Notes under the pieces: generated by a model
The model's database searches: none
The model's input: only the letters and a program-made list of their open reading frames with translations
What the model was told of the DNA's origin: nothing
Position numbers and translations under genes: made by a program
In this document: piece by piece, positions 5,561 through 21,884 of the stretch
How positions within the stretch are numbered: position 1 is the stretch's first letter
How the letters are laid out: each line of letters begins with the position of its first letter
From: Candidatus Kaiserbacteria bacterium
GTDB lineage: Bacteria; Patescibacteriota; Minisyncoccia; Phycocordibacterales; UBA2100
DNA: 64,000 nucleotides
Assembly: GCA_023267655.1 (NCBI GenBank)
Contig: JAHFMV010000001.1
Location: 95,954-159,953, forward strand
Reading direction: 5' to 3'

Positions 5561-8458
5561 ATGATGACCCAGATAACAATCACGAAACGTGATGGAAATA
5601 AAGAGCCCTTCAATGCGGACAAAATCAACCGCTCGATCGAGCGTGCATGCATCGGACTTACCGATCCCATTTCGATGGTGACGCAAATCGCAACCGAAAC
5701 GCAGCTCACGCTCTACGATGGAATCACGACGGAAGAGATGGACATGGCGACCATCAACGCGGCGGTGCAAAACATCAAAGAAGACATTGAATACGACAAA
5801 GTGGGCGTGCGTTTGCTTTTGAAAACGGTCTATCGCCGTGTTGTTGGCGAATTCCATGATGATCCGGCGGAATTGGATGCGAAACACCGAGCGCAATTCC
5901 CGGTGCATATCAAAAATATGGTGCAAAGCGGTCTGTTGGACGTGCGCATGCAAGAAAAATACGACCTTGAGAAGCTTGCCGCAGCCCTCAAAATCGAGCG
6001 CGACGAGCTCTTTACCTATGCGGGCGTTTCCACACTTCTTGATCGTTATTCCATGCGCAACGAAGCGCAGAAACGCATCGAAACGCCCCAGTATTTCTTC
6101 ATGCGCATCGCGATGGGACTCTCATATAACGAAGCAAATCCGACCGAGCAAGCGATCAAATTCTACGACCGCATGTCGCAGCTCCTGTATATCGCGGGCG
6201 GCTCCACGAATCTCGGTGCAGGCACCTCGCGTCCAGCGCTCTCCAATTGTTTCCTCCTTGAAGTCCACGACGACATGGACCATATCGCAAAATCAGTCGC
6301 GGATGTCTTGAAAATCTCAAAAGCATCAGGTGGTCTTGGCGTTTCTCTCACCAAATTACGCGCGACCGGTTCCACATTGAAGGCCTCAAACACGGTCTCT
6401 AGTGGCCCAACCCCATTTGCCAAAATCATGGACACCGCAGTGCATGCGATCGTCCGCGGTGGCAAGAAAAAAGGCGCGCTCTGTTTCTATATGGAGAACT
6501 GGCACTATGATTTCCCGGAATATATCGACTGGAAACATAACGCGGGTGACGACTACATGCGCATGCGCACCGCAAATACCGCGACATGGATTTCCGACGA
6601 ATTTATGAAGCGTGTCGAGGCGGGTGACGAATGGTATCTCTTTGACCCGAAGGAAGTAATGGATCTGAACGAACTCTACGGCCAAGCCTTTTCGAAGCGG
6701 TATGCGGAATACATCGAGAAAGCAAAGGCAGGGCAAATGAAAATGTGGAAGAAGATGCCGGCGACCGAATTGTGGAGCAACATGCTCACCGCACTGCAAT
6801 CGACGTCGCATCCGTGGCTCACGTGGAAAGATTCGATCAACCTGCGCGCGCTCAACAACAACACCGGCACGATCCACATGTCGAATTTGTGTACCGAAAT
6901 CTGTTTGCCGCAAGACAAGGACAATATCGCCGTTTGTAACTTGATTTCACTCAATCTCGCGGGGCACATCGAAGGGAAGCAGGTCAACTGGTACAAGCTT
7001 GAAGAAACCGTACGCCTTGCGGTGCGTCAGCTCGACAACCTCATTGATATCAATGTGCTCCCGATCGAAGAAGCGCGCCGCTCGGACAGCGAGAACCGCG
7101 CGATCGGCCTCGGCGTCATGGGCTTTGCGGATGCGCTTGAGCAGCTTGGCATTCCGTATGAAAGCGGTCACGGCGCGGAATTTGCGGACCGGATTTTCGA
7201 ATTCATCAGTTATATGGCGATCGATGAGAGCGCGAATCTCGCAAAAGTGCGCGGTTCGTACAAACACTTTGTTGGCTCAGGATGGTCAGAAGGGTTGGTG
7301 CCGGTAGATACGATCGCGCGCGTCGAAGCAGAGCGCGGATTCCTGACCGGCCTCAAGAAAGACACGCGCAACAAGCAGCTGAATTGGGATGCATTGCGCG
7401 CAAAAGTGAAAGGCGGCATGCGCAATGCGACGCTTATGGCGGTTGCGCCGAATGCAAACATCGGACTTGTTGCGGGCACGACGCCGGGGATTGATCCACG
7501 CTTCGCACAAGTTTTCTCGCGCAACAAATTCTCCGGCAAGTACATGGACATCAACCACAACCTCGTGAAGGATTTGAAAAACATGGGGCTCTGGGATGAG
7601 GTGAAAGAAAAAATCGTCGAGCAGCAGGGAGATATTTCTGCGATCAATGAAATTCCGTCGTACTTGAAACAGATCTACAAAACATCATTTACGACATCAC
7701 CGTACGCATTCATTGAAGTCGCGGCGCGTGCGCAGAAATGGGTAGATCAGGCGCTCTCGCGCAATATCTATCTCGAAAACCGCGACATGGACGCGATGAA
7801 GCAGGTGTACATGGCGGCGTGGAAACGAGGACTGAAGACGACGTACTACTTGCACATGAAGCCGCGCCATAGCGCCGAGCAATCAACGACGCATGTGAAC
7901 AAGGGCGCACAATTCGCAAAGCGTGGGTTCGCCGGAGTGGTGGCGTCGCCGATCTCGACCGAAGCACCAACGCTCTCGCCGATCCAGCAGTCGCCCGTTA
8001 CCGTTCACGAGACGATGCCACTTACGCCGAATAGCGCGCCTGCGGTCGAAGTCGTGATGCCGGTGGAAACGTCGCGCGGATTCGCTCCTGCAGCAGCACA
8101 GGGAGCACTGCCAATTCAACCCGCAATGCAGCAGAGTTTACCCGGTGAGATGACGGCTTCGCCTATCTCACGGGATTTACCGGTGCAGGATGTGGTGAAG
8201 CCGGTGGTTGCGGTAGCACCAATCGCCGTAGCACCACTACAGACGCCATCGTATCAACCGATTCAGGCTGTAGCACCGGCGCAAATGGCTTCAGCACCAT
8301 CTCGCATGGGTTTTGCAACCGTTGTCTCGTCCGCTCCTATCCAAATGCCAGCCGCTTCGACCGTGCCAACACCTGCACCAATAGTTATCAAAAAAGAAAA
8401 AGCATTCGTCTGCCCGATAGATCCCGCCGAAAGAGCTCAATGCGATTCCTGCCAATGA
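5561..8458 (+). CDS. nrdA: Class I ribonucleotide reductase alpha subunit with ATP cone and long Pro/Ala-rich C-terminal linker
   Basis: ITKRDG ATP cone, SNCF, SNLCTEI, VCNL, GLKTTYY and terminal CDSC. Confidence 0.96.
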   Translation: MMTQITITKRDGNKEPFNADKINRSIERACIGLTDPISMVTQIATETQLTLYDGITTEEMDMATINAAVQNIKEDIEYDKVGVRLLLKTVYRRVVGEFHDDPAELDAKHRAQFPVHIKNMVQSGLLDVRMQEKYDLEKLAAALKIERDELFTYAGVSTLLDRYSMRNEAQKRIETPQYFFMRIAMGLSYNEANPTEQAIKFYDRMSQLLYIAGGSTNLGAGTSRPALSNCFLLEVHDDMDHIAKSVADVLKISKASGGLGVSLTKLRATGSTLKASNTVSSGPTPFAKIMDTAVHAIVRGGKKKGALCFYMENWHYDFPEYIDWKHNAGDDYMRMRTANTATWISDEFMKRVEAGDEWYLFDPKEVMDLNELYGQAFSKRYAEYIEKAKAGQMKMWKKMPATELWSNMLTALQSTSHPWLTWKDSINLRALNNNTGTIHMSNLCTEICLPQDKDNIAVCNLISLNLAGHIEGKQVNWYKLEETVRLAVRQLDNLIDINVLPIEEARRSDSENRAIGLGVMGFADALEQLGIPYESGHGAEFADRIFEFISYMAIDESANLAKVRGSYKHFVGSGWSEGLVPVDTIARVEAERGFLTGLKKDTRNKQLNWDALRAKVKGGMRNATLMAVAPNANIGLVAGTTPGIDPRFAQVFSRNKFSGKYMDINHNLVKDLKNMGLWDEVKEKIVEQQGDISAINEIPSYLKQIYKTSFTTSPYAFIEVAARAQKWVDQALSRNIYLENRDMDAMKQVYMAAWKRGLKTTYYLHMKPRHSAEQSTTHVNKGAQFAKRGFAGVVASPISTEAPTLSPIQQSPVTVHETMPLTPNSAPAVEVVMPVETSRGFAPAAAQGALPIQPAMQQSLPGEMTASPISRDLPVQDVVKPVVAVAPIAVAPLQTPSYQPIQAVAPAQMASAPSRMGFATVVSSAPIQMPAASTVPTPAPIVIKKEKAFVCPIDPAERAQCDSCQ

Positions 8459-8502
8459 GTGTCAATAGGTTTGAAAATTAATAGTAGTAACATAGTGCGC
8501 AT

Positions 8503-9486
8503 ATGTTAGTTGGAAAAGCGTCTCCGGACGACATGAATTTGCATCCTATACGCTATCAGTGGGCGTATGATCTCTATCAGCAAGCAGTCAGAAACACGTG
8601 GTTCCCGCACGAAATTGCGCTCAAAGAAGACCTCGGCGACTGGGCAAACATGACCGACGACGAGCGGCATGCGGTGAAATTCCTCATGGCGTTCTTCAAC
8701 CCAGCGGAACTGATTGTGAACCGCTCGATCGCGCTCGGTATTTATCCGTATCTCAAATCACCGGAGTGCCACTTGTATCTCGCCAAACAAATGTGGGAAG
8801 AGGCAAACCACTGCGTCGCATTCGAGTACGTCTTGCAGACGTTCCCGTTTGATCGCACCGAAGTCTTTGGCATCCATTTGCAGACACCATCGATGCTCGC
8901 CAAAGAAGCGTACATCAACAGATACATGAAGCGGATGATGGAAGATTCGCTCGATGTGGAGACGCCGGAAGGGAAGAAAGACTTTCTGCGCAATCTCGTC
9001 GCGACGAACATCGTGATGGAAGGCATTTGGTTCTATTCGGGATTCATGGTGGCGCTTTCATTCCGTCAGAGAAATCAGCTGCGCAATTTGGGCTCGATGA
9101 TCAATTGGGTGATCCGCGATGAATCGCTCCATTTGAAATTCGGGATCAATCTCATTCATAACATCCTTGAAGAGAACGCAGAATTAGTCGATGCGTCGTT
9201 TGCGCAGGAAATCGCCGGTATCATCGTCGAAGGTGTGAATTTGGAGACCGCCTACAACCAAGACCTCTTCCCGCGCGGCATCCTCGGGCTGAACGCGGAT
9301 TATGTAAATCAATACGTGCAATACGTTGCGGATCGCCGTTTGGAGGAATTAGGCCTCGGCAAGCACTACAACGTCACCAATCCGGCAAAATGGATGTCCA
9401 CGGCGACGGATGTCTTTGAGTTGGTCAACTTCTTCGAGGCTCAGAATACGTCGTACGAGGTGGATTCTGGCTCGAAACATAAGTAA
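8503..9486 (+). CDS. nrdB: Ribonucleotide reductase beta subunit, class Ic (Mn/Fe R2c)-like
   Basis: FFNPAE (Glu as first ligand), EEANHCVAF (Phe at radical-Tyr site), MEGIWFYSGF, RDESLH, NFFE. Confidence 0.93.
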   Translation: MLVGKASPDDMNLHPIRYQWAYDLYQQAVRNTWFPHEIALKEDLGDWANMTDDERHAVKFLMAFFNPAELIVNRSIALGIYPYLKSPECHLYLAKQMWEEANHCVAFEYVLQTFPFDRTEVFGIHLQTPSMLAKEAYINRYMKRMMEDSLDVETPEGKKDFLRNLVATNIVMEGIWFYSGFMVALSFRQRNQLRNLGSMINWVIRDESLHLKFGINLIHNILEENAELVDASFAQEIAGIIVEGVNLETAYNQDLFPRGILGLNADYVNQYVQYVADRRLEELGLGKHYNVTNPAKWMSTATDVFELVNFFEAQNTSYEVDSGSKHK

Positions 9487-17027: not shown

Positions 17028-18362
17028 TTATTTAAACACCGTCGGAATCGGAAACTTTTTGCAGAGCGCCATGACTTCTTTACGGATTTTGGCTAATTCT
17101 TTGTTTTTTGCGAAGTCTTTTCTACATTCAGCGAGAAATGCCTTGCGCACGCCTTTTTCCGCCGGCAAATCGACATCTTTCACCATTTCCATGGCGTCCG
17201 CAATGTAATTGCCGATCAATTTCATTTCTTTTTCTTTCATTCGACGTGTTGTGATCGACGGCGTGCCGAGGCGGATGCCGCTCGGGTAAAACGGGGAGGA
17301 TGGTTCATTAGGGATCGTATTCTTGTTGGTCGTGAGGCCGATGGCATCCAGCGCGATTTCCACGATAGCTCCTCGGCCGGTTCCGCATTTCATGAGCATC
17401 ATGTGGTTGTCAGTGCCATTCGTGACGAGATTAACACTGCGATCCATAAGTGCTTTTGCGAGCGCTTTTGCGTTTTTCACGATTTGTTTGCCATAGGTAC
17501 GGAACGCGGGAGTTGCGGCCTCTTTGAGTGCGACACCAATAGCGGCCGTCGTGTGGTCATGTGGGCCGCCCTGTAAATTAGGGAAGATCGCACGGTCGAC
17601 TTTTGCGCCAAGTTCCGCGTCTTTCGCGAGTCCCTTTGTAGTGACCATTATCATACCGCCACGCGGGCCGCGAAGCGTTTTGTGCGTCGTCGTGGTCACG
17701 ACGTGCACATACGGAACAGGCGAGACATGCGCCCCTGCGACAACAAGGCCGGCGATGTGCGCGATATCGGCGGCTAGGTATGCGCCAACTTCATCCGCAA
17801 TTGCGCCGAGTTCTTTAAAGGGAAATTCGCGCACATACGCCGTGGCTCCCACCCATATCAATTTCGGCTTATGCTCGCGCGCGAGTCGTGCGATCTCCTT
17901 CAAGTCCATGTAACCGTCGGGTTTGAGGCCATACTGCACTGATTTGTAGAACATGCTCGTCGCACTTGCTTTCCAACCATGCGTGAGGTGCCCGCCGTCG
18001 GTGAGGAGCAAGCCCATGACCGTGTCGCCGGGGTTGCACGTGGCGAGATACACTGCCAAATTGGCCGGAGAACCGGAATACGGCTGGACATTCACGAAGG
18101 GAACTTTGAAGAGCTTTTTGGCGCGCTCACGCACCATGTCTTCAATCTCGTCGATGACTTCGTTGCCGCCGTAATAGCGCGCATGCGGGTAGCCCTCCGA
18201 GTACTTGTTCGTGAGAATTGACCCCATTGCCTCCAAAACAGCCTGCGAAACGATGTTTTCCGAAGGAATCAGCTCCAACCCCTCCTCTTGGCGATTCTTT
18301 TCAGCGATTATTTTTTGGTAGATTTCTTTGTCCTGTTTTTTTACATTGAGATAACGATCCAT
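17028..18362 (-). CDS. glyA: Serine hydroxymethyltransferase
   Basis: LIPSEN, KYSEGYP, GGHLTHG, TTTTHKTLRGPRGG, SGIRLGT. Confidence 0.97.
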   Translation of the reverse strand: MDRYLNVKKQDKEIYQKIIAEKNRQEEGLELIPSENIVSQAVLEAMGSILTNKYSEGYPHARYYGGNEVIDEIEDMVRERAKKLFKVPFVNVQPYSGSPANLAVYLATCNPGDTVMGLLLTDGGHLTHGWKASATSMFYKSVQYGLKPDGYMDLKEIARLAREHKPKLIWVGATAYVREFPFKELGAIADEVGAYLAADIAHIAGLVVAGAHVSPVPYVHVVTTTTHKTLRGPRGGMIMVTTKGLAKDAELGAKVDRAIFPNLQGGPHDHTTAAIGVALKEAATPAFRTYGKQIVKNAKALAKALMDRSVNLVTNGTDNHMMLMKCGTGRGAIVEIALDAIGLTTNKNTIPNEPSSPFYPSGIRLGTPSITTRRMKEKEMKLIGNYIADAMEMVKDVDLPAEKGVRKAFLAECRKDFAKNKELAKIRKEVMALCKKFPIPTVFK

Positions 18363-18410: not shown

Positions 18411-18746
18411 TTAGCGGTTATCACCATCGCTGGCTATGACGTTCCGTGTCGCACGATCAGCCAGTTTGTCGACATTTGCTTGCGCGATTTCAGAAAAGGG
18501 GATTTCGAGGTGGCGCGCGAGCTGTGAGCAGTACCAGAGTACGTCGCCGATTTCCAATTTCAACGCCTCGCGCTTTTCCGGCGAGATCATGCCGTTGTCA
18601 TTGCGAATTATTTTCTTGATCTTATCGGCCACTTCGCCCGCTTCCGAGGTGAGACCAAGGCCGAGGTACATAAGCGCAAATTCAGCCTGTTTTCCCTCGA
18701 AATTGCCGGTTCTGTTGGCAAGCGTCTGGTACTCATCGAAATCCAT
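18411..18746 (-). CDS. MazG-like all-alpha NTP pyrophosphohydrolase
   Basis: LGLTSEAGEVADKIKK...EIGDVLWY...NVDKLADR. Confidence 0.9.
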   Translation of the reverse strand: MDFDEYQTLANRTGNFEGKQAEFALMYLGLGLTSEAGEVADKIKKIIRNDNGMISPEKREALKLEIGDVLWYCSQLARHLEIPFSEIAQANVDKLADRATRNVIASDGDNR

Positions 18747-19418: not shown

Positions 19419-20252
19419 ATGGCTCGATTCGATTCCATCTACCAAGACATGTTGAAGCGAATCGTCAAGGAAGGAACTCCTGAAAAAAACCAACGAACTG
19501 GGCACGAAGTGAAAGCAATTCCAGGAATGCATTTTTCGATTGATACTGAGAAAGAAGGATTTCCACTCCTCACGCTGCGCAAAATTCCGGTGAAGATGTT
19601 TGTTGCAGAGCAGATTTGGTTTGTTTCCGGTGCGCGCAAGCCCGCAGATTTTTTGCGCGACTATACGAAAATCTGGGACATCTTTACGAATCCGGCGGAT
19701 GTCGTGACCGTCGCCTATGGCTACCGCTGGCGCAAACATTTTGGCCGCGATCAGCTCGGTCTCCTCATGAAGCATTTGAAAGAAGAGCCGACATCACGTC
19801 ATGGTGTCGTCATCACGTGGGATCCGGCAGGAGATGGGCTTGGTGTGACGAATCGCAAAAACGTGCCATGTCCGTATTCGTTTACGGTGAACATTATTGG
19901 CGGCAGGCTGAACCTTCACAACATCGTCCGCTCCAATGACATGGTCTTGGGCTTCCCATCGGATGTTGCGGGGTTCGCTCTTTTGCAGCACATGCTCGCG
20001 CAGAAACTAGGCGTAAAATCAGGCGTATATTCGCATTCGATTTCCAATGCGCATGTGTATGACAATCAGTACGATGCCGTGAAAGAAATGCTGCGTCGAA
20101 GAAATACCCATAAGACCCTGAAGATCGCACTGCCAAAGAATTCGTATGATCGCGCCGAGAAAAAGGATGTGAAATTGGTGGATCAAATGATTGCGGCGTT
20201 TGGTGATTACAAACCGCAGGAGGCGATCAAAGGCTTGCAGATTGTTTTATAA
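19419..20252 (+). CDS. thyA: Thymidylate synthase-family protein with Asn177->Asp (possible dCMP methyltransferase)
   Basis: FPLLTLRK, EQIWF, YGYRWR, PC catalytic Cys, RSNDMVLGFPSD, HVY. Confidence 0.9.
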   Translation: MARFDSIYQDMLKRIVKEGTPEKNQRTGHEVKAIPGMHFSIDTEKEGFPLLTLRKIPVKMFVAEQIWFVSGARKPADFLRDYTKIWDIFTNPADVVTVAYGYRWRKHFGRDQLGLLMKHLKEEPTSRHGVVITWDPAGDGLGVTNRKNVPCPYSFTVNIIGGRLNLHNIVRSNDMVLGFPSDVAGFALLQHMLAQKLGVKSGVYSHSISNAHVYDNQYDAVKEMLRRRNTHKTLKIALPKNSYDRAEKKDVKLVDQMIAAFGDYKPQEAIKGLQIVL

Positions 20253-20259
20253 TTCAACT

Positions 20260-20892
20260 ATGGCAATCCTCACAAAAGAAGAAATTTTGCAGCGAGTGAA
20301 GGACAAAAATATTGTCGTCTCTCCTGGACTTGATGTTTTCCAGATACAAGCGCATGCAATTGATCTTCGTCTCGGATTTACCTTTCTCATTCCAAAATCA
20401 TGGCGTATGACGGCAGAGGGGCGTGAAGCAATGATGATCGATCCTCTACGTGATCACGGACCGGAATATTTCGACGTGATTGAGCTGGAGCAAGGGCAGT
20501 CATTTGACCTTTTACCGCAAGAGTACGTACTCGTCTCAACGTTTGAGACGATAAAAATCCCGAACGATCTTATGGCGGTCTTGTATCCGCGTTCGTCGGT
20601 AAATAGAAAAGGCCTTTCCGTCGACCTCACGGGAATCATCGATTCCGGCTATGAAGGACCCCTCACGCTCCCGATCCGTAACAACACCCGATCGCAAGTG
20701 ATCCAACTACATCCCGGCGAACGCATCTGTCAGGTTGTTTTTGAAGAACTCAAGCAGCCGGTCATCGCGCGCAAATCACGATGGCACATGAAGGACGTCG
20801 TCGAAAAAGGGAAGAAAGAAAAGGCAAAAGAAATGAAGCTCGTCTTCAACGGCGATATCAAGAAATTAAAGTCGGATTACAAAGCGGCATAA
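20260..20892 (+). CDS. dcd: Dcd/dUTPase-fold protein lacking the deaminase Glu
   Basis: IDLRLG, PRSS, GIIDSGYEG, PGERICQ; TLP where Dcd has TLE/VLE. Confidence 0.8.
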   Translation: MAILTKEEILQRVKDKNIVVSPGLDVFQIQAHAIDLRLGFTFLIPKSWRMTAEGREAMMIDPLRDHGPEYFDVIELEQGQSFDLLPQEYVLVSTFETIKIPNDLMAVLYPRSSVNRKGLSVDLTGIIDSGYEGPLTLPIRNNTRSQVIQLHPGERICQVVFEELKQPVIARKSRWHMKDVVEKGKKEKAKEMKLVFNGDIKKLKSDYKAA

Positions 20893-20911: not shown

Positions 20912-21148
20912 ATGAAAACGAAAGAGCACTCATATACCGTCCAGATTGAGCCCGTAAAAGAGGGTGGTTTTTGGTCGCGCGTACCTGCGCTTTCGGGCTG
21001 CTTTTCACAAGGGGAGACGATTGAAGAGACGATTCAGAACACAAAAGAAGCCATTGAGCTCTACCTCGAAGGGCTTGCAAATGACAAACAAGACATTCCC
21101 GAAGAATCTGAATTTGCCGTCAGTGTGCGCATCCCAGTAACGGTGTAA
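20912..21148 (+). CDS. hicB: HicB-family antitoxin
   Basis: VPALSGCFSQGETIEE...EAIELYLE. Confidence 0.9.
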   Translation: MKTKEHSYTVQIEPVKEGGFWSRVPALSGCFSQGETIEETIQNTKEAIELYLEGLANDKQDIPEESEFAVSVRIPVTV

Positions 21149-21150
21149 TT

Positions 21151-21375
21151 ATGGCTCCGCGTTTGCCGAACATCACGGCAAAAGAAGCGATCCGTGCCTT
21201 CACACGGGCGGGGTTCCTTATTGCAGGGCAGAAGGGAAGTCATGTTCGATTGAAGAATTCAGATGGTATCATGCTCATCATCCCAAATCATTCGGGCGAC
21301 GTTAAGCGGCCGCTTCTTAAGGCACTGATCAAGCTGGCGGGATTGAATGAGAAGCAGTTTCGCGACTTACTTTGA
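21151..21375 (+). CDS. hicA: HicA-family toxin
   Basis: GF...QKGSH...IPNH HicA motif. Confidence 0.9.
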   Translation: MAPRLPNITAKEAIRAFTRAGFLIAGQKGSHVRLKNSDGIMLIIPNHSGDVKRPLLKALIKLAGLNEKQFRDLL

Positions 21376-21377
21376 AT

Positions 21378-21884
21378 ATGAGCGAGCATACGATTAGTAT
21401 GATTGGCGCGATCGGAAGACTGCGCGAGCTCGGAAAAGGGAATGATCTGTTGTGGAAAATTCCCGATGATCTGAAGAGATTCCGCTCGATTACCAATGGG
21501 CATCCCTGCGTGATGGGGAGGAAGACGTTTGAATCGATTGTTGCCATTTTAAAAAAGCCGCTGCCGAATCGGACAAATATCATCGTGACTCGCGATCCGG
21601 CGTGGGCGTACGAAGGCGTGCTTGCGGTAAATACGATTGAAGAAGCGATCCAGCTCGCGAAGCGAAAGCTCGGCGGCGAAGAAGTCTTTATCATCGGCGG
21701 TGGGCAGATCTACGAGCTTGGCATTTCATACGCCGACAAGTTGTATTTGACGCTGATCGATGATTCAAAGGAAGCCGATTCGTTTTTTCCCGAATACGAA
21801 AAAGTTTTCACAAAGAAAGTATTTGAAGAGGAGCGAGAGTTCGAAGGGTTGAAATATACATGGGTTGACTTGGAAAGAGCTTGA
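21378..21884 (+). CDS. folA: Dihydrofolate reductase
   Basis: LLWKIPDDLKRF, VMGRKTFES, LPNRTNI, IIGGGQIY. Confidence 0.95.
   Translation: MSEHTISMIGAIGRLRELGKGNDLLWKIPDDLKRFRSITNGHPCVMGRKTFESIVAILKKPLPNRTNIIVTRDPAWAYEGVLAVNTIEEAIQLAKRKLGGEEVFIIGGGQIYELGISYADKLYLTLIDDSKEADSFFPEYEKVFTKKVFEEEREFEGLKYTWVDLERA

Follow-up and report, generated by a model that had tools for sequence, protein, structure and literature searches.

A predicted dUMP-free thymidylate route around an Asp177-type ThyA homolog in Candidatus Kaiserbacteria

The nucleotide dUMP is described as the obligate precursor of de novo dTTP (PMC5519681). A single substitution in ThyA, N177D, makes the enzyme use dCMP instead of dUMP, and the two best markers of phage contigs with modified cytosine are given as positions 177 and 147 (PMC8670742). 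As to the product formed, an acidic residue at position 143 has been linked to hydroxymethylation, Leu at 143 to methyl products and D169N to hydroxylation (PMC13326640). The closest described system is that of phage Xp12 (MT664984; also Mallos and RcSimone-Hastad), where the synthase is encoded in a trio with a deaminase and a DHFR. In vivo, 5mdC was made by the Xp12 enzyme and by 5/7 other tested Asp-type phage homologs, with no 5mdC from the remaining 2/7, and it has been hypothesized that Xp12-type phages obtain dTTP from deaminated 5mdCTP (bioRxiv 10.1101/2024.12.05.627091). Both the enzyme type and the idea of methylating and then deaminating are therefore already known from phages, and a dUMP-free route has so far been proposed for phages only. 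Two papers on Patescibacteria, in their passages on thyA, treat the gene as ordinary and make no mention of dCMP. A search of full-text literature (subscription journals and preprint supplements being outside its scope) returned no report of a cellular dCMP-first thymidylate route.

Active-site residues of the ThyA-like protein

The window (the whole 64-kb stretch of DNA that was analyzed) is ordinary chromosome from a Candidatus Kaiserbacteria genome of 1.09 Mb (98.9% complete). In this ultra-small bacterium it encodes a 277-aa ThyA-fold protein of the Asp177 type (19419..20252, + strand), a predicted dCMP C5-methyltransferase. A sequence-only reading of this DNA had placed the catalytic Cys in the motif NVPCPYSFT and an Asp codon at 19962-19964 in RSNDMVLGFPSDVAGF, and both placements were correct: TGT at 19869 encodes Cys151 and GAT encodes Asp182 (+ strand). 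Cys151, Pro152 and Asp182 are the counterparts of E. coli ThyA C146, H147 and N177. The stretch from Cys to Asp aligned without gaps to solved thymidylate synthases, with Pro152 opposite the His that follows the catalytic Cys and Asp182 opposite the Asn of 'PFNIASY', and its spacing of 31 equals that between C146 and N177 in the numbering of PMC13326640. This ungapped alignment confirms Asp182 as position 177, which determines specificity for uracil or cytosine, and it upholds the Asn177-to-Asp and His147-to-Pro replacements that had been claimed. A rival Asn at the 177 site was looked for in the alignment and none was found, as Asn173 faces E. coli C168. Within Asn148-Val-Pro-Cys151-Pro152 (19860..19874, +), Asn148 occupies position 143, and Asp174 (19938..19940, +) corresponds to D169; it is kept, and the D169N signature of the 5-hydroxy-dCMP synthases (RB69/DLP3) is absent. 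The AlphaFold model had a pLDDT of 96.5 and matched the ThyA fold with TM 0.76–0.87 among the Foldseek matches listed.

The Asp is a property of a whole protein group. The best 120 of 2450 homologs were 72–91% identical to the ThyA-like protein, and 119/120 carried the pattern RSND...G.P[SA]D, which was unmatched in one; the few entries among them with an organism name were Paceibacterota, Minisyncoccia, Kaiserbacteria and Parcubacteria. Likewise, Asp was found at 177 in 76/76 readable GTDB loci, the other 2/78 being truncated. Given this agreement, Asp182 is not the result of chance or of a sequencing error.

As had been anticipated, such a protein would routinely be annotated as thyA: its score of 127 bits exceeds the 108-bit cut-off of TIGR03284 ('thymidylate synthase'), and its homologs are named thymidylate synthase in the source databases. 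With canonical ThyA (E. coli, L. casei; PF00303, TIGR03284) it shares the fold, the catalytic Cys, Glu58, Tyr94, the Arg/Ser phosphate binders, Asp169, His-x-Tyr and the chromosomal neighbors glyA, folA and tmk. In contrast to canonical ThyA, it has Asp and Pro in place of the uracil-reading Asn177 and His147 and Asn in place of Leu143, is ~25–34% identical, and is separated from every Asn row by the main split of the tree. The fold and the TIGR03284 match would suit an enzyme that uses dUMP in vivo, with dUMP coming from dCMP through the neighboring deaminase and/or from the neighboring Dcd-like protein acting as a plain dUTPase, in an unusual conventional operon. Engineered Asn-to-Asp ThyA mutants do retain some dUMP activity. 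However, the two residues that read uracil O4 (N177 and H147) carry the very replacements seen in an enzyme proven to methylate dCMP, and the near-complete fixation of Asp among the best homologs also argues against use of dUMP.

Among phage enzymes, the Xp12 dCMP methylase was 37% identical over 244 residues (E 3e-52) and has the same residues at 143, 147, 169 and 177 (Asn, Pro, Asp and Asp), as well as at 146. The ThyA-like protein thus has the features of the Xp12 type: Asp177, a residue other than His at 147, a non-acidic 143 and Asp169. The sequence-only reading had also named an RSND...D pattern in T4 gp42; this is present in register, as RSND...FRND, and gp42 and MilA resemble the ThyA-like protein in having Asp at 177, the RSND motif and no His147. 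The common motif, together with a polar Asn at 143 instead of ThyA's bulky Leu, could be taken to indicate an enzyme that hydroxymethylates dCMP or CMP, like T4 gp42 or MilA, or else a 5-hydroxylase, serving a modified nucleotide or a natural product. Yet position 143 is non-acidic and equal to that of Xp12, in contrast to the Asp of gp42, D169 is kept, and identity to gp42 is 23% (E 6e-9; the figure is for gp42 and not MilA). Since the Xp12 enzyme matches with the same four residues and gp42 is distant, methylation rather than hydroxymethylation is likely.

We also examined how Asp and Asn types are arranged in trees. A 50%-cluster search gave 139 aligned rows of at least 200 aa (query included, 12 shorter rows dropped), with Asp in 117 and Asn in 21. 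In a 36-row tree, the 13 Patescibacteria Asp rows and two viral-contig rows formed one group (95/87). The three Xp12-like phage rows fell with this group at a node whose support was short of strong (89/57), and the 17 Asn rows lay across the split. A quick tree of 96 rows also kept the Asn clade separate (100), with the Patescibacteria and Xp12-like Asp groups not placed as sisters. Four rows (P0262, P0265, P0268 and P0270) have Asp at 177 within the Asn ThyA clade, three of them with Pro at 147, and are apparently independent switches to the cytosine signature. Viral contigs L255 and L256 (34 and 43 kb) encode a 49–50% relative of the Asp synthase and a classic dUTPase, L256 also having an HWWC-like deaminase and L255 a kinase-like gene.

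The conserved cassette, its deaminase and its Dcd-fold protein

A Dcd-family gene (20260..20892, +; 210 aa, a predicted dCTP and/or dUTP pyrophosphatase) lies 7 bases downstream of the ThyA-like gene. A gene for a Zn-dependent protein of the deoxycytidylate deaminase family (PF00383; 18835..19350, −; a predicted 5-methyl-dCMP deaminase) is divergent from it, with 68 bases between. Nearby are genes for serine hydroxymethyltransferase (GlyA, 17028..18362, −), which is a source of methylene-THF, for a small MazG-family pyrophosphatase (18411..18746, −), a variable member of the locus, and for dihydrofolate reductase (folA, 21378..21884, +). A hicB-hicA toxin-antitoxin pair (20912..21375, +) between the Dcd-like gene and folA stands outside the cassette. 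No clustered counterpart of the pair was found in 19 related loci; at this place relatives have either no gene or an IS200-like one. The window also contains class I ribonucleotide reductase genes (5561-9486), 8 kb from the cassette, with a large subunit of 965 aa that extends ~200 residues beyond the barrel domain.

A scan of species-representative genomes identified 78 loci, and every record title named either a Patescibacteria group or an unclassified bacterium. For the 40 loci with full 5-kb flanks, we found DHFR in 40, a Dcd homolog in 40, a PF00383 deaminase in 39, GlyA in 39, Tmk in 38, MazG in 13 and a classic dUTPase in 8 (a separate classic dUTPase occurs in 15/78 loci overall). The linkage to both deaminase and DHFR is that of the Xp12 type. 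DHFR is required only if the folate is oxidized, and dependence on it is not expected for gp42 or MilA; its presence at all 40 loci, along with the lack of any clustered glycosyltransferase or tailoring gene, leaves hydroxymethylation or hydroxylation with almost no credibility. Of the earlier proposal of a cellular dCMP methyl- or hydroxymethyl-transferase, a cellular, chromosomal dCMP-type enzyme is retained as the best reading, with the likely type narrowed to the Xp12 methylase and away from the hydroxymethylases of T4 and MilA.

Of 250 genomes drawn evenly across the phylum, 10, belonging to 8 families, had a relative of 47–58% identity, all with Asp, and the next-best relatives were at most 38% identical; distant members may have been missed because this search used one protein. 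As a point against a cytosine route, one genome (G122, 85% complete) has the Asp enzyme with no Dcd-like gene and a weak deaminase match only. Some Asp loci (L066, L068, L129) have two deaminase copies, or fusions to a kinase-like or a nucleoside 2-deoxyribosyltransferase-like domain.

The window deaminase has HxE, with LWGHWW[CA]CxxCW in place of PCxxC, and represents a separate subfamily that is linked to the Asp type. It was matched in 10/10 Asp and 0/13 Asn genomes of the genus, and in 0/16 others of the order. Its profile scored at least 105 bits in 9/10 Asp genomes of the 250-genome draw and at most 67 elsewhere. As the deaminase and Dcd-like profiles were both built from Asp genomes, their scores serve as a test only through the distance to the remaining 240 genomes. 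Other PF00383 genes occur in some Asn genomes by family search, and five other genomes of the order have an ordinary dCMP deaminase beside an Asn ThyA. Because dCMP deaminases adjoin Asn ThyA, a deaminase and a synthase together are not in themselves a sign of a cytosine route, and this arrangement, common in the order, is a point for dUMP as the substrate. No close relationship to the Xp12 deaminase was detected for the window deaminase (E 0.014), which appears to belong to an unrelated subfamily. Where the preprint discusses selective deamination of 5mC (the mSCD trait), it reports the trait as polyphyletic and gives no sequence signature, and it describes the phage enzyme mSCD-B5 as acting on triphosphates only (bioRxiv 10.1101/2024.12.05.627091).

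The Dcd-like protein passes the dCTP deaminase annotation cut-off and folds like Dcd and Dcd:dUTPase. It shares the trimeric dUTPase-type fold, the RSS motif and the motif-3 Asp with Dcd and bifunctional Dcd:dUTPase (1xs1 from E. coli, 2qlp from M. tuberculosis, 4xjc from B. halodurans), and it has the same fold type, RSS motif and motif-3 Asp as the archaeal Dcd-like dUTPases (8y1w, 9ln0). Unlike known Dcds, proteins of this group have Pro (Ser once) at the Glu138 site and Asp/Asn or a shortened segment at the His121 position, and they make up a separate clade that goes with the Asp synthase. In the window protein, Pro138 (20671-20673) occupies the site of the Glu and Asp128 (20641-20643) is kept. 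We take the residue replaced, E138 of E. coli Dcd, to be catalytic. The alignment column is that of E. coli E138, which is mutated in 2v9x. The Glu was absent from 18/18 readable Dcds of Asp genomes (one more was cut by a contig end and one was not found) and from 69/69 readable GTDB loci, and it was kept in 17/17 Dcds from other genomes, 11 of them of the same genus, in one alignment and in 19/19 other Dcds in a second. Since the Glu is missing in Asp genomes, these alignments suggest that dCTP deamination disappeared in genomes whose synthase has switched to the cytosine type.

Naturally Glu-less Dcd folds in the PDB (the archaeal 8y1w and 9ln0) are titled dUTPases, and the Dcd-like protein is the only dUTPase-superfamily gene in the source genome; for these reasons it may make dUMP, in keeping with a dUMP-using synthase. 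However, a dUMP enzyme would need neither the deaminase subfamily nor the loss of Glu from Dcd, and both track the Asp type. Considering this with the active-site replacements, we regard dUMP as an unlikely substrate in vivo.

Two further observations concern this family. First, the Dcd-like profile scored at least 279 in the same 9/10 Asp genomes of the 250-genome draw as the deaminase profile and in one other genome, and at most 99 in the rest; this other genome (G197, 97% complete; G197:C6:23096-26725, L305), a point against a cytosine route, has a Glu-less gene of the Dcd clade immediately following one for a ComEB-like dCMP deaminase of the ordinary kind, and neither ThyA nor ThyX was found in it. 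Second, Dcds of Asn-type genomes of the genus (L143, L141, L144, L147, L152-L157) keep the Glu and have the motif-3 Asp changed to Asn (GIINPG), and a search of these genomes for a classic dUTPase found none.

A candidate cytosine-first route to dTMP

The source genome has one PF00303 gene, one Tmk (on another contig) and one uracil-DNA glycosylase. The PF00303 gene is the ThyA-like gene, which is the only member of its family there, and no ThyX was found; ThyX was similarly found in 0/20 Asp genomes. Searches of the source genome for thymidine kinase, for cytidylate kinase of two families and for C5 DNA methyltransferase gave no match. Compared to Xp12, the Kaiserbacteria gene is chromosomal in a cell, is the sole synthase and is accompanied by Tmk and GlyA, and its Dcd-fold partner without Glu has no annotated counterpart in the Xp12-like phage neighborhoods examined.

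With a sole synthase of the Asp type, a special deaminase and a Glu-less Dcd, methylation at the cytosine stage is likely. We put at roughly 0.7 the probability that this only synthase, with its Xp12-type Pro147 and Asp177, serves a dUMP-free cellular route from dCMP through 5-methyl-dCMP to dTMP, a prediction made from sequence. In this route, the Dcd-fold protein would hydrolyze dCTP to dCMP without deamination, possibly removing dUTP and 5-methyl-dCTP as well. The ThyA-like protein would move a methyl group from methylene-THF to C5 of dCMP, an activity proposed from that of the Xp12 enzyme, and the DHF released would be recycled by DHFR and GlyA. The HWWC-type deaminase would prefer the 5-methylated nucleotide and convert 5-methyl-dCMP to dTMP, which would pass to an ordinary Tmk. 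The variant we favor, at about even odds, has the monophosphate as the substrate of deamination. By analogy with phage mSCD-B5, deamination could occur at the triphosphate level instead; because mSCD-B5 acts on triphosphates only, we give this variant some weight, as the less likely of the two.

The same synthase, deaminase and DHFR trio serves Xp12 and its relatives, so we considered an Xp12-like chromosome, in which 5-methyl-dCMP would be phosphorylated and built into DNA in place of much or all of the cytosine, and thymine would come from a side branch. A system that substitutes bases needs an enzyme that destroys dCTP, and two viral contigs fall in the same synthase clade. In contrast to Xp12, though, several indirect lines of evidence argue against 5mC-substituted DNA here. 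DNA C5-methyltransferases are kept in 5/20 Asp and 2/13 Asn genomes, cytidylate kinase was unmatched in the source genome itself and was above the cut-off in 1/5 genomes, and no dedicated kinase or polymerase is clustered with the cassette. In addition, genomes of both types are mixed within a single genus, and their tmk loci differ little in G+C (0.525 vs 0.542, n = 10 each). A substituted chromosome is therefore very unlikely, and the ThyA-like protein, with its neighboring genes, likely serves thymidylate supply and not DNA base modification.

The observation is real and the gene is likely misannotated. If the cytosine-first route is correct, methylation of cytosine before deamination in a cellular lineage breaks the obligate-dUMP rule, and the thyA and dcd annotations are wrong in ~4% of the sampled Patescibacteria genomes (10/250) and in 10/25 of the genus. 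The new enzymes gained would then be three, with a dCMP methylase from a cell, a Dcd-fold protein that is probably a dCTPase, and a deaminase subfamily, the last being of interest for 5mC-selective sequencing tools. Tentatively, at somewhat under even odds, part of the Patescibacteria may use a third, uracil-free route to de novo thymidylate beside ThyA and ThyX, composed of a dCTP pyrophosphatase, an Xp12-type methylase and a new deaminase subfamily, as a module repeatedly swapped among close relatives.

Probable exchange of the module within the genus

Among 25 genomes of the genus, 10 are of the Asp type, 13 are of the Asn type and 2 are incomplete with neither; none has both. In one genome (G006) the Asp locus is present a second time, as a partial copy. 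The types are intermingled on trees of Tmk (18 Asp, 9 Asn) and GlyA (10 and 10), where strong branches force at least 5 changes and there is no clustering relative to shuffles. The Tmk tree has 7 changes against a shuffled mean of 7.8, that is, Tmk does not switch with the module, which fits delivery of dTMP by both modules. Tmk and GlyA lie beside the module and could be transferred along with it. The gene recA, which is unlinked, was also considered. Its tree gave 5 changes (bootstrap 4–6; one clade in 0/200), although it is poorly resolved and strong branches force only 1 change. The related genomes counted here are not independent of each other. Repeated swapping of the module is likely, and the best explanation is that the three-gene module takes the place of an ordinary module of Asn ThyA and Glu-containing Dcd, with exchange between the two.

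The RecA of the source genome (L371; G000:C21, from about 11050) is encoded in one open frame of ~714 aa with an insertion, which the other 21 genus members lack while matching the full RecA profile. The insertion begins Cys-Leu-Asn, ends His-Asn before Ser and contains LAGLIDADG-like motifs, and by this pattern it is presumably an intein.
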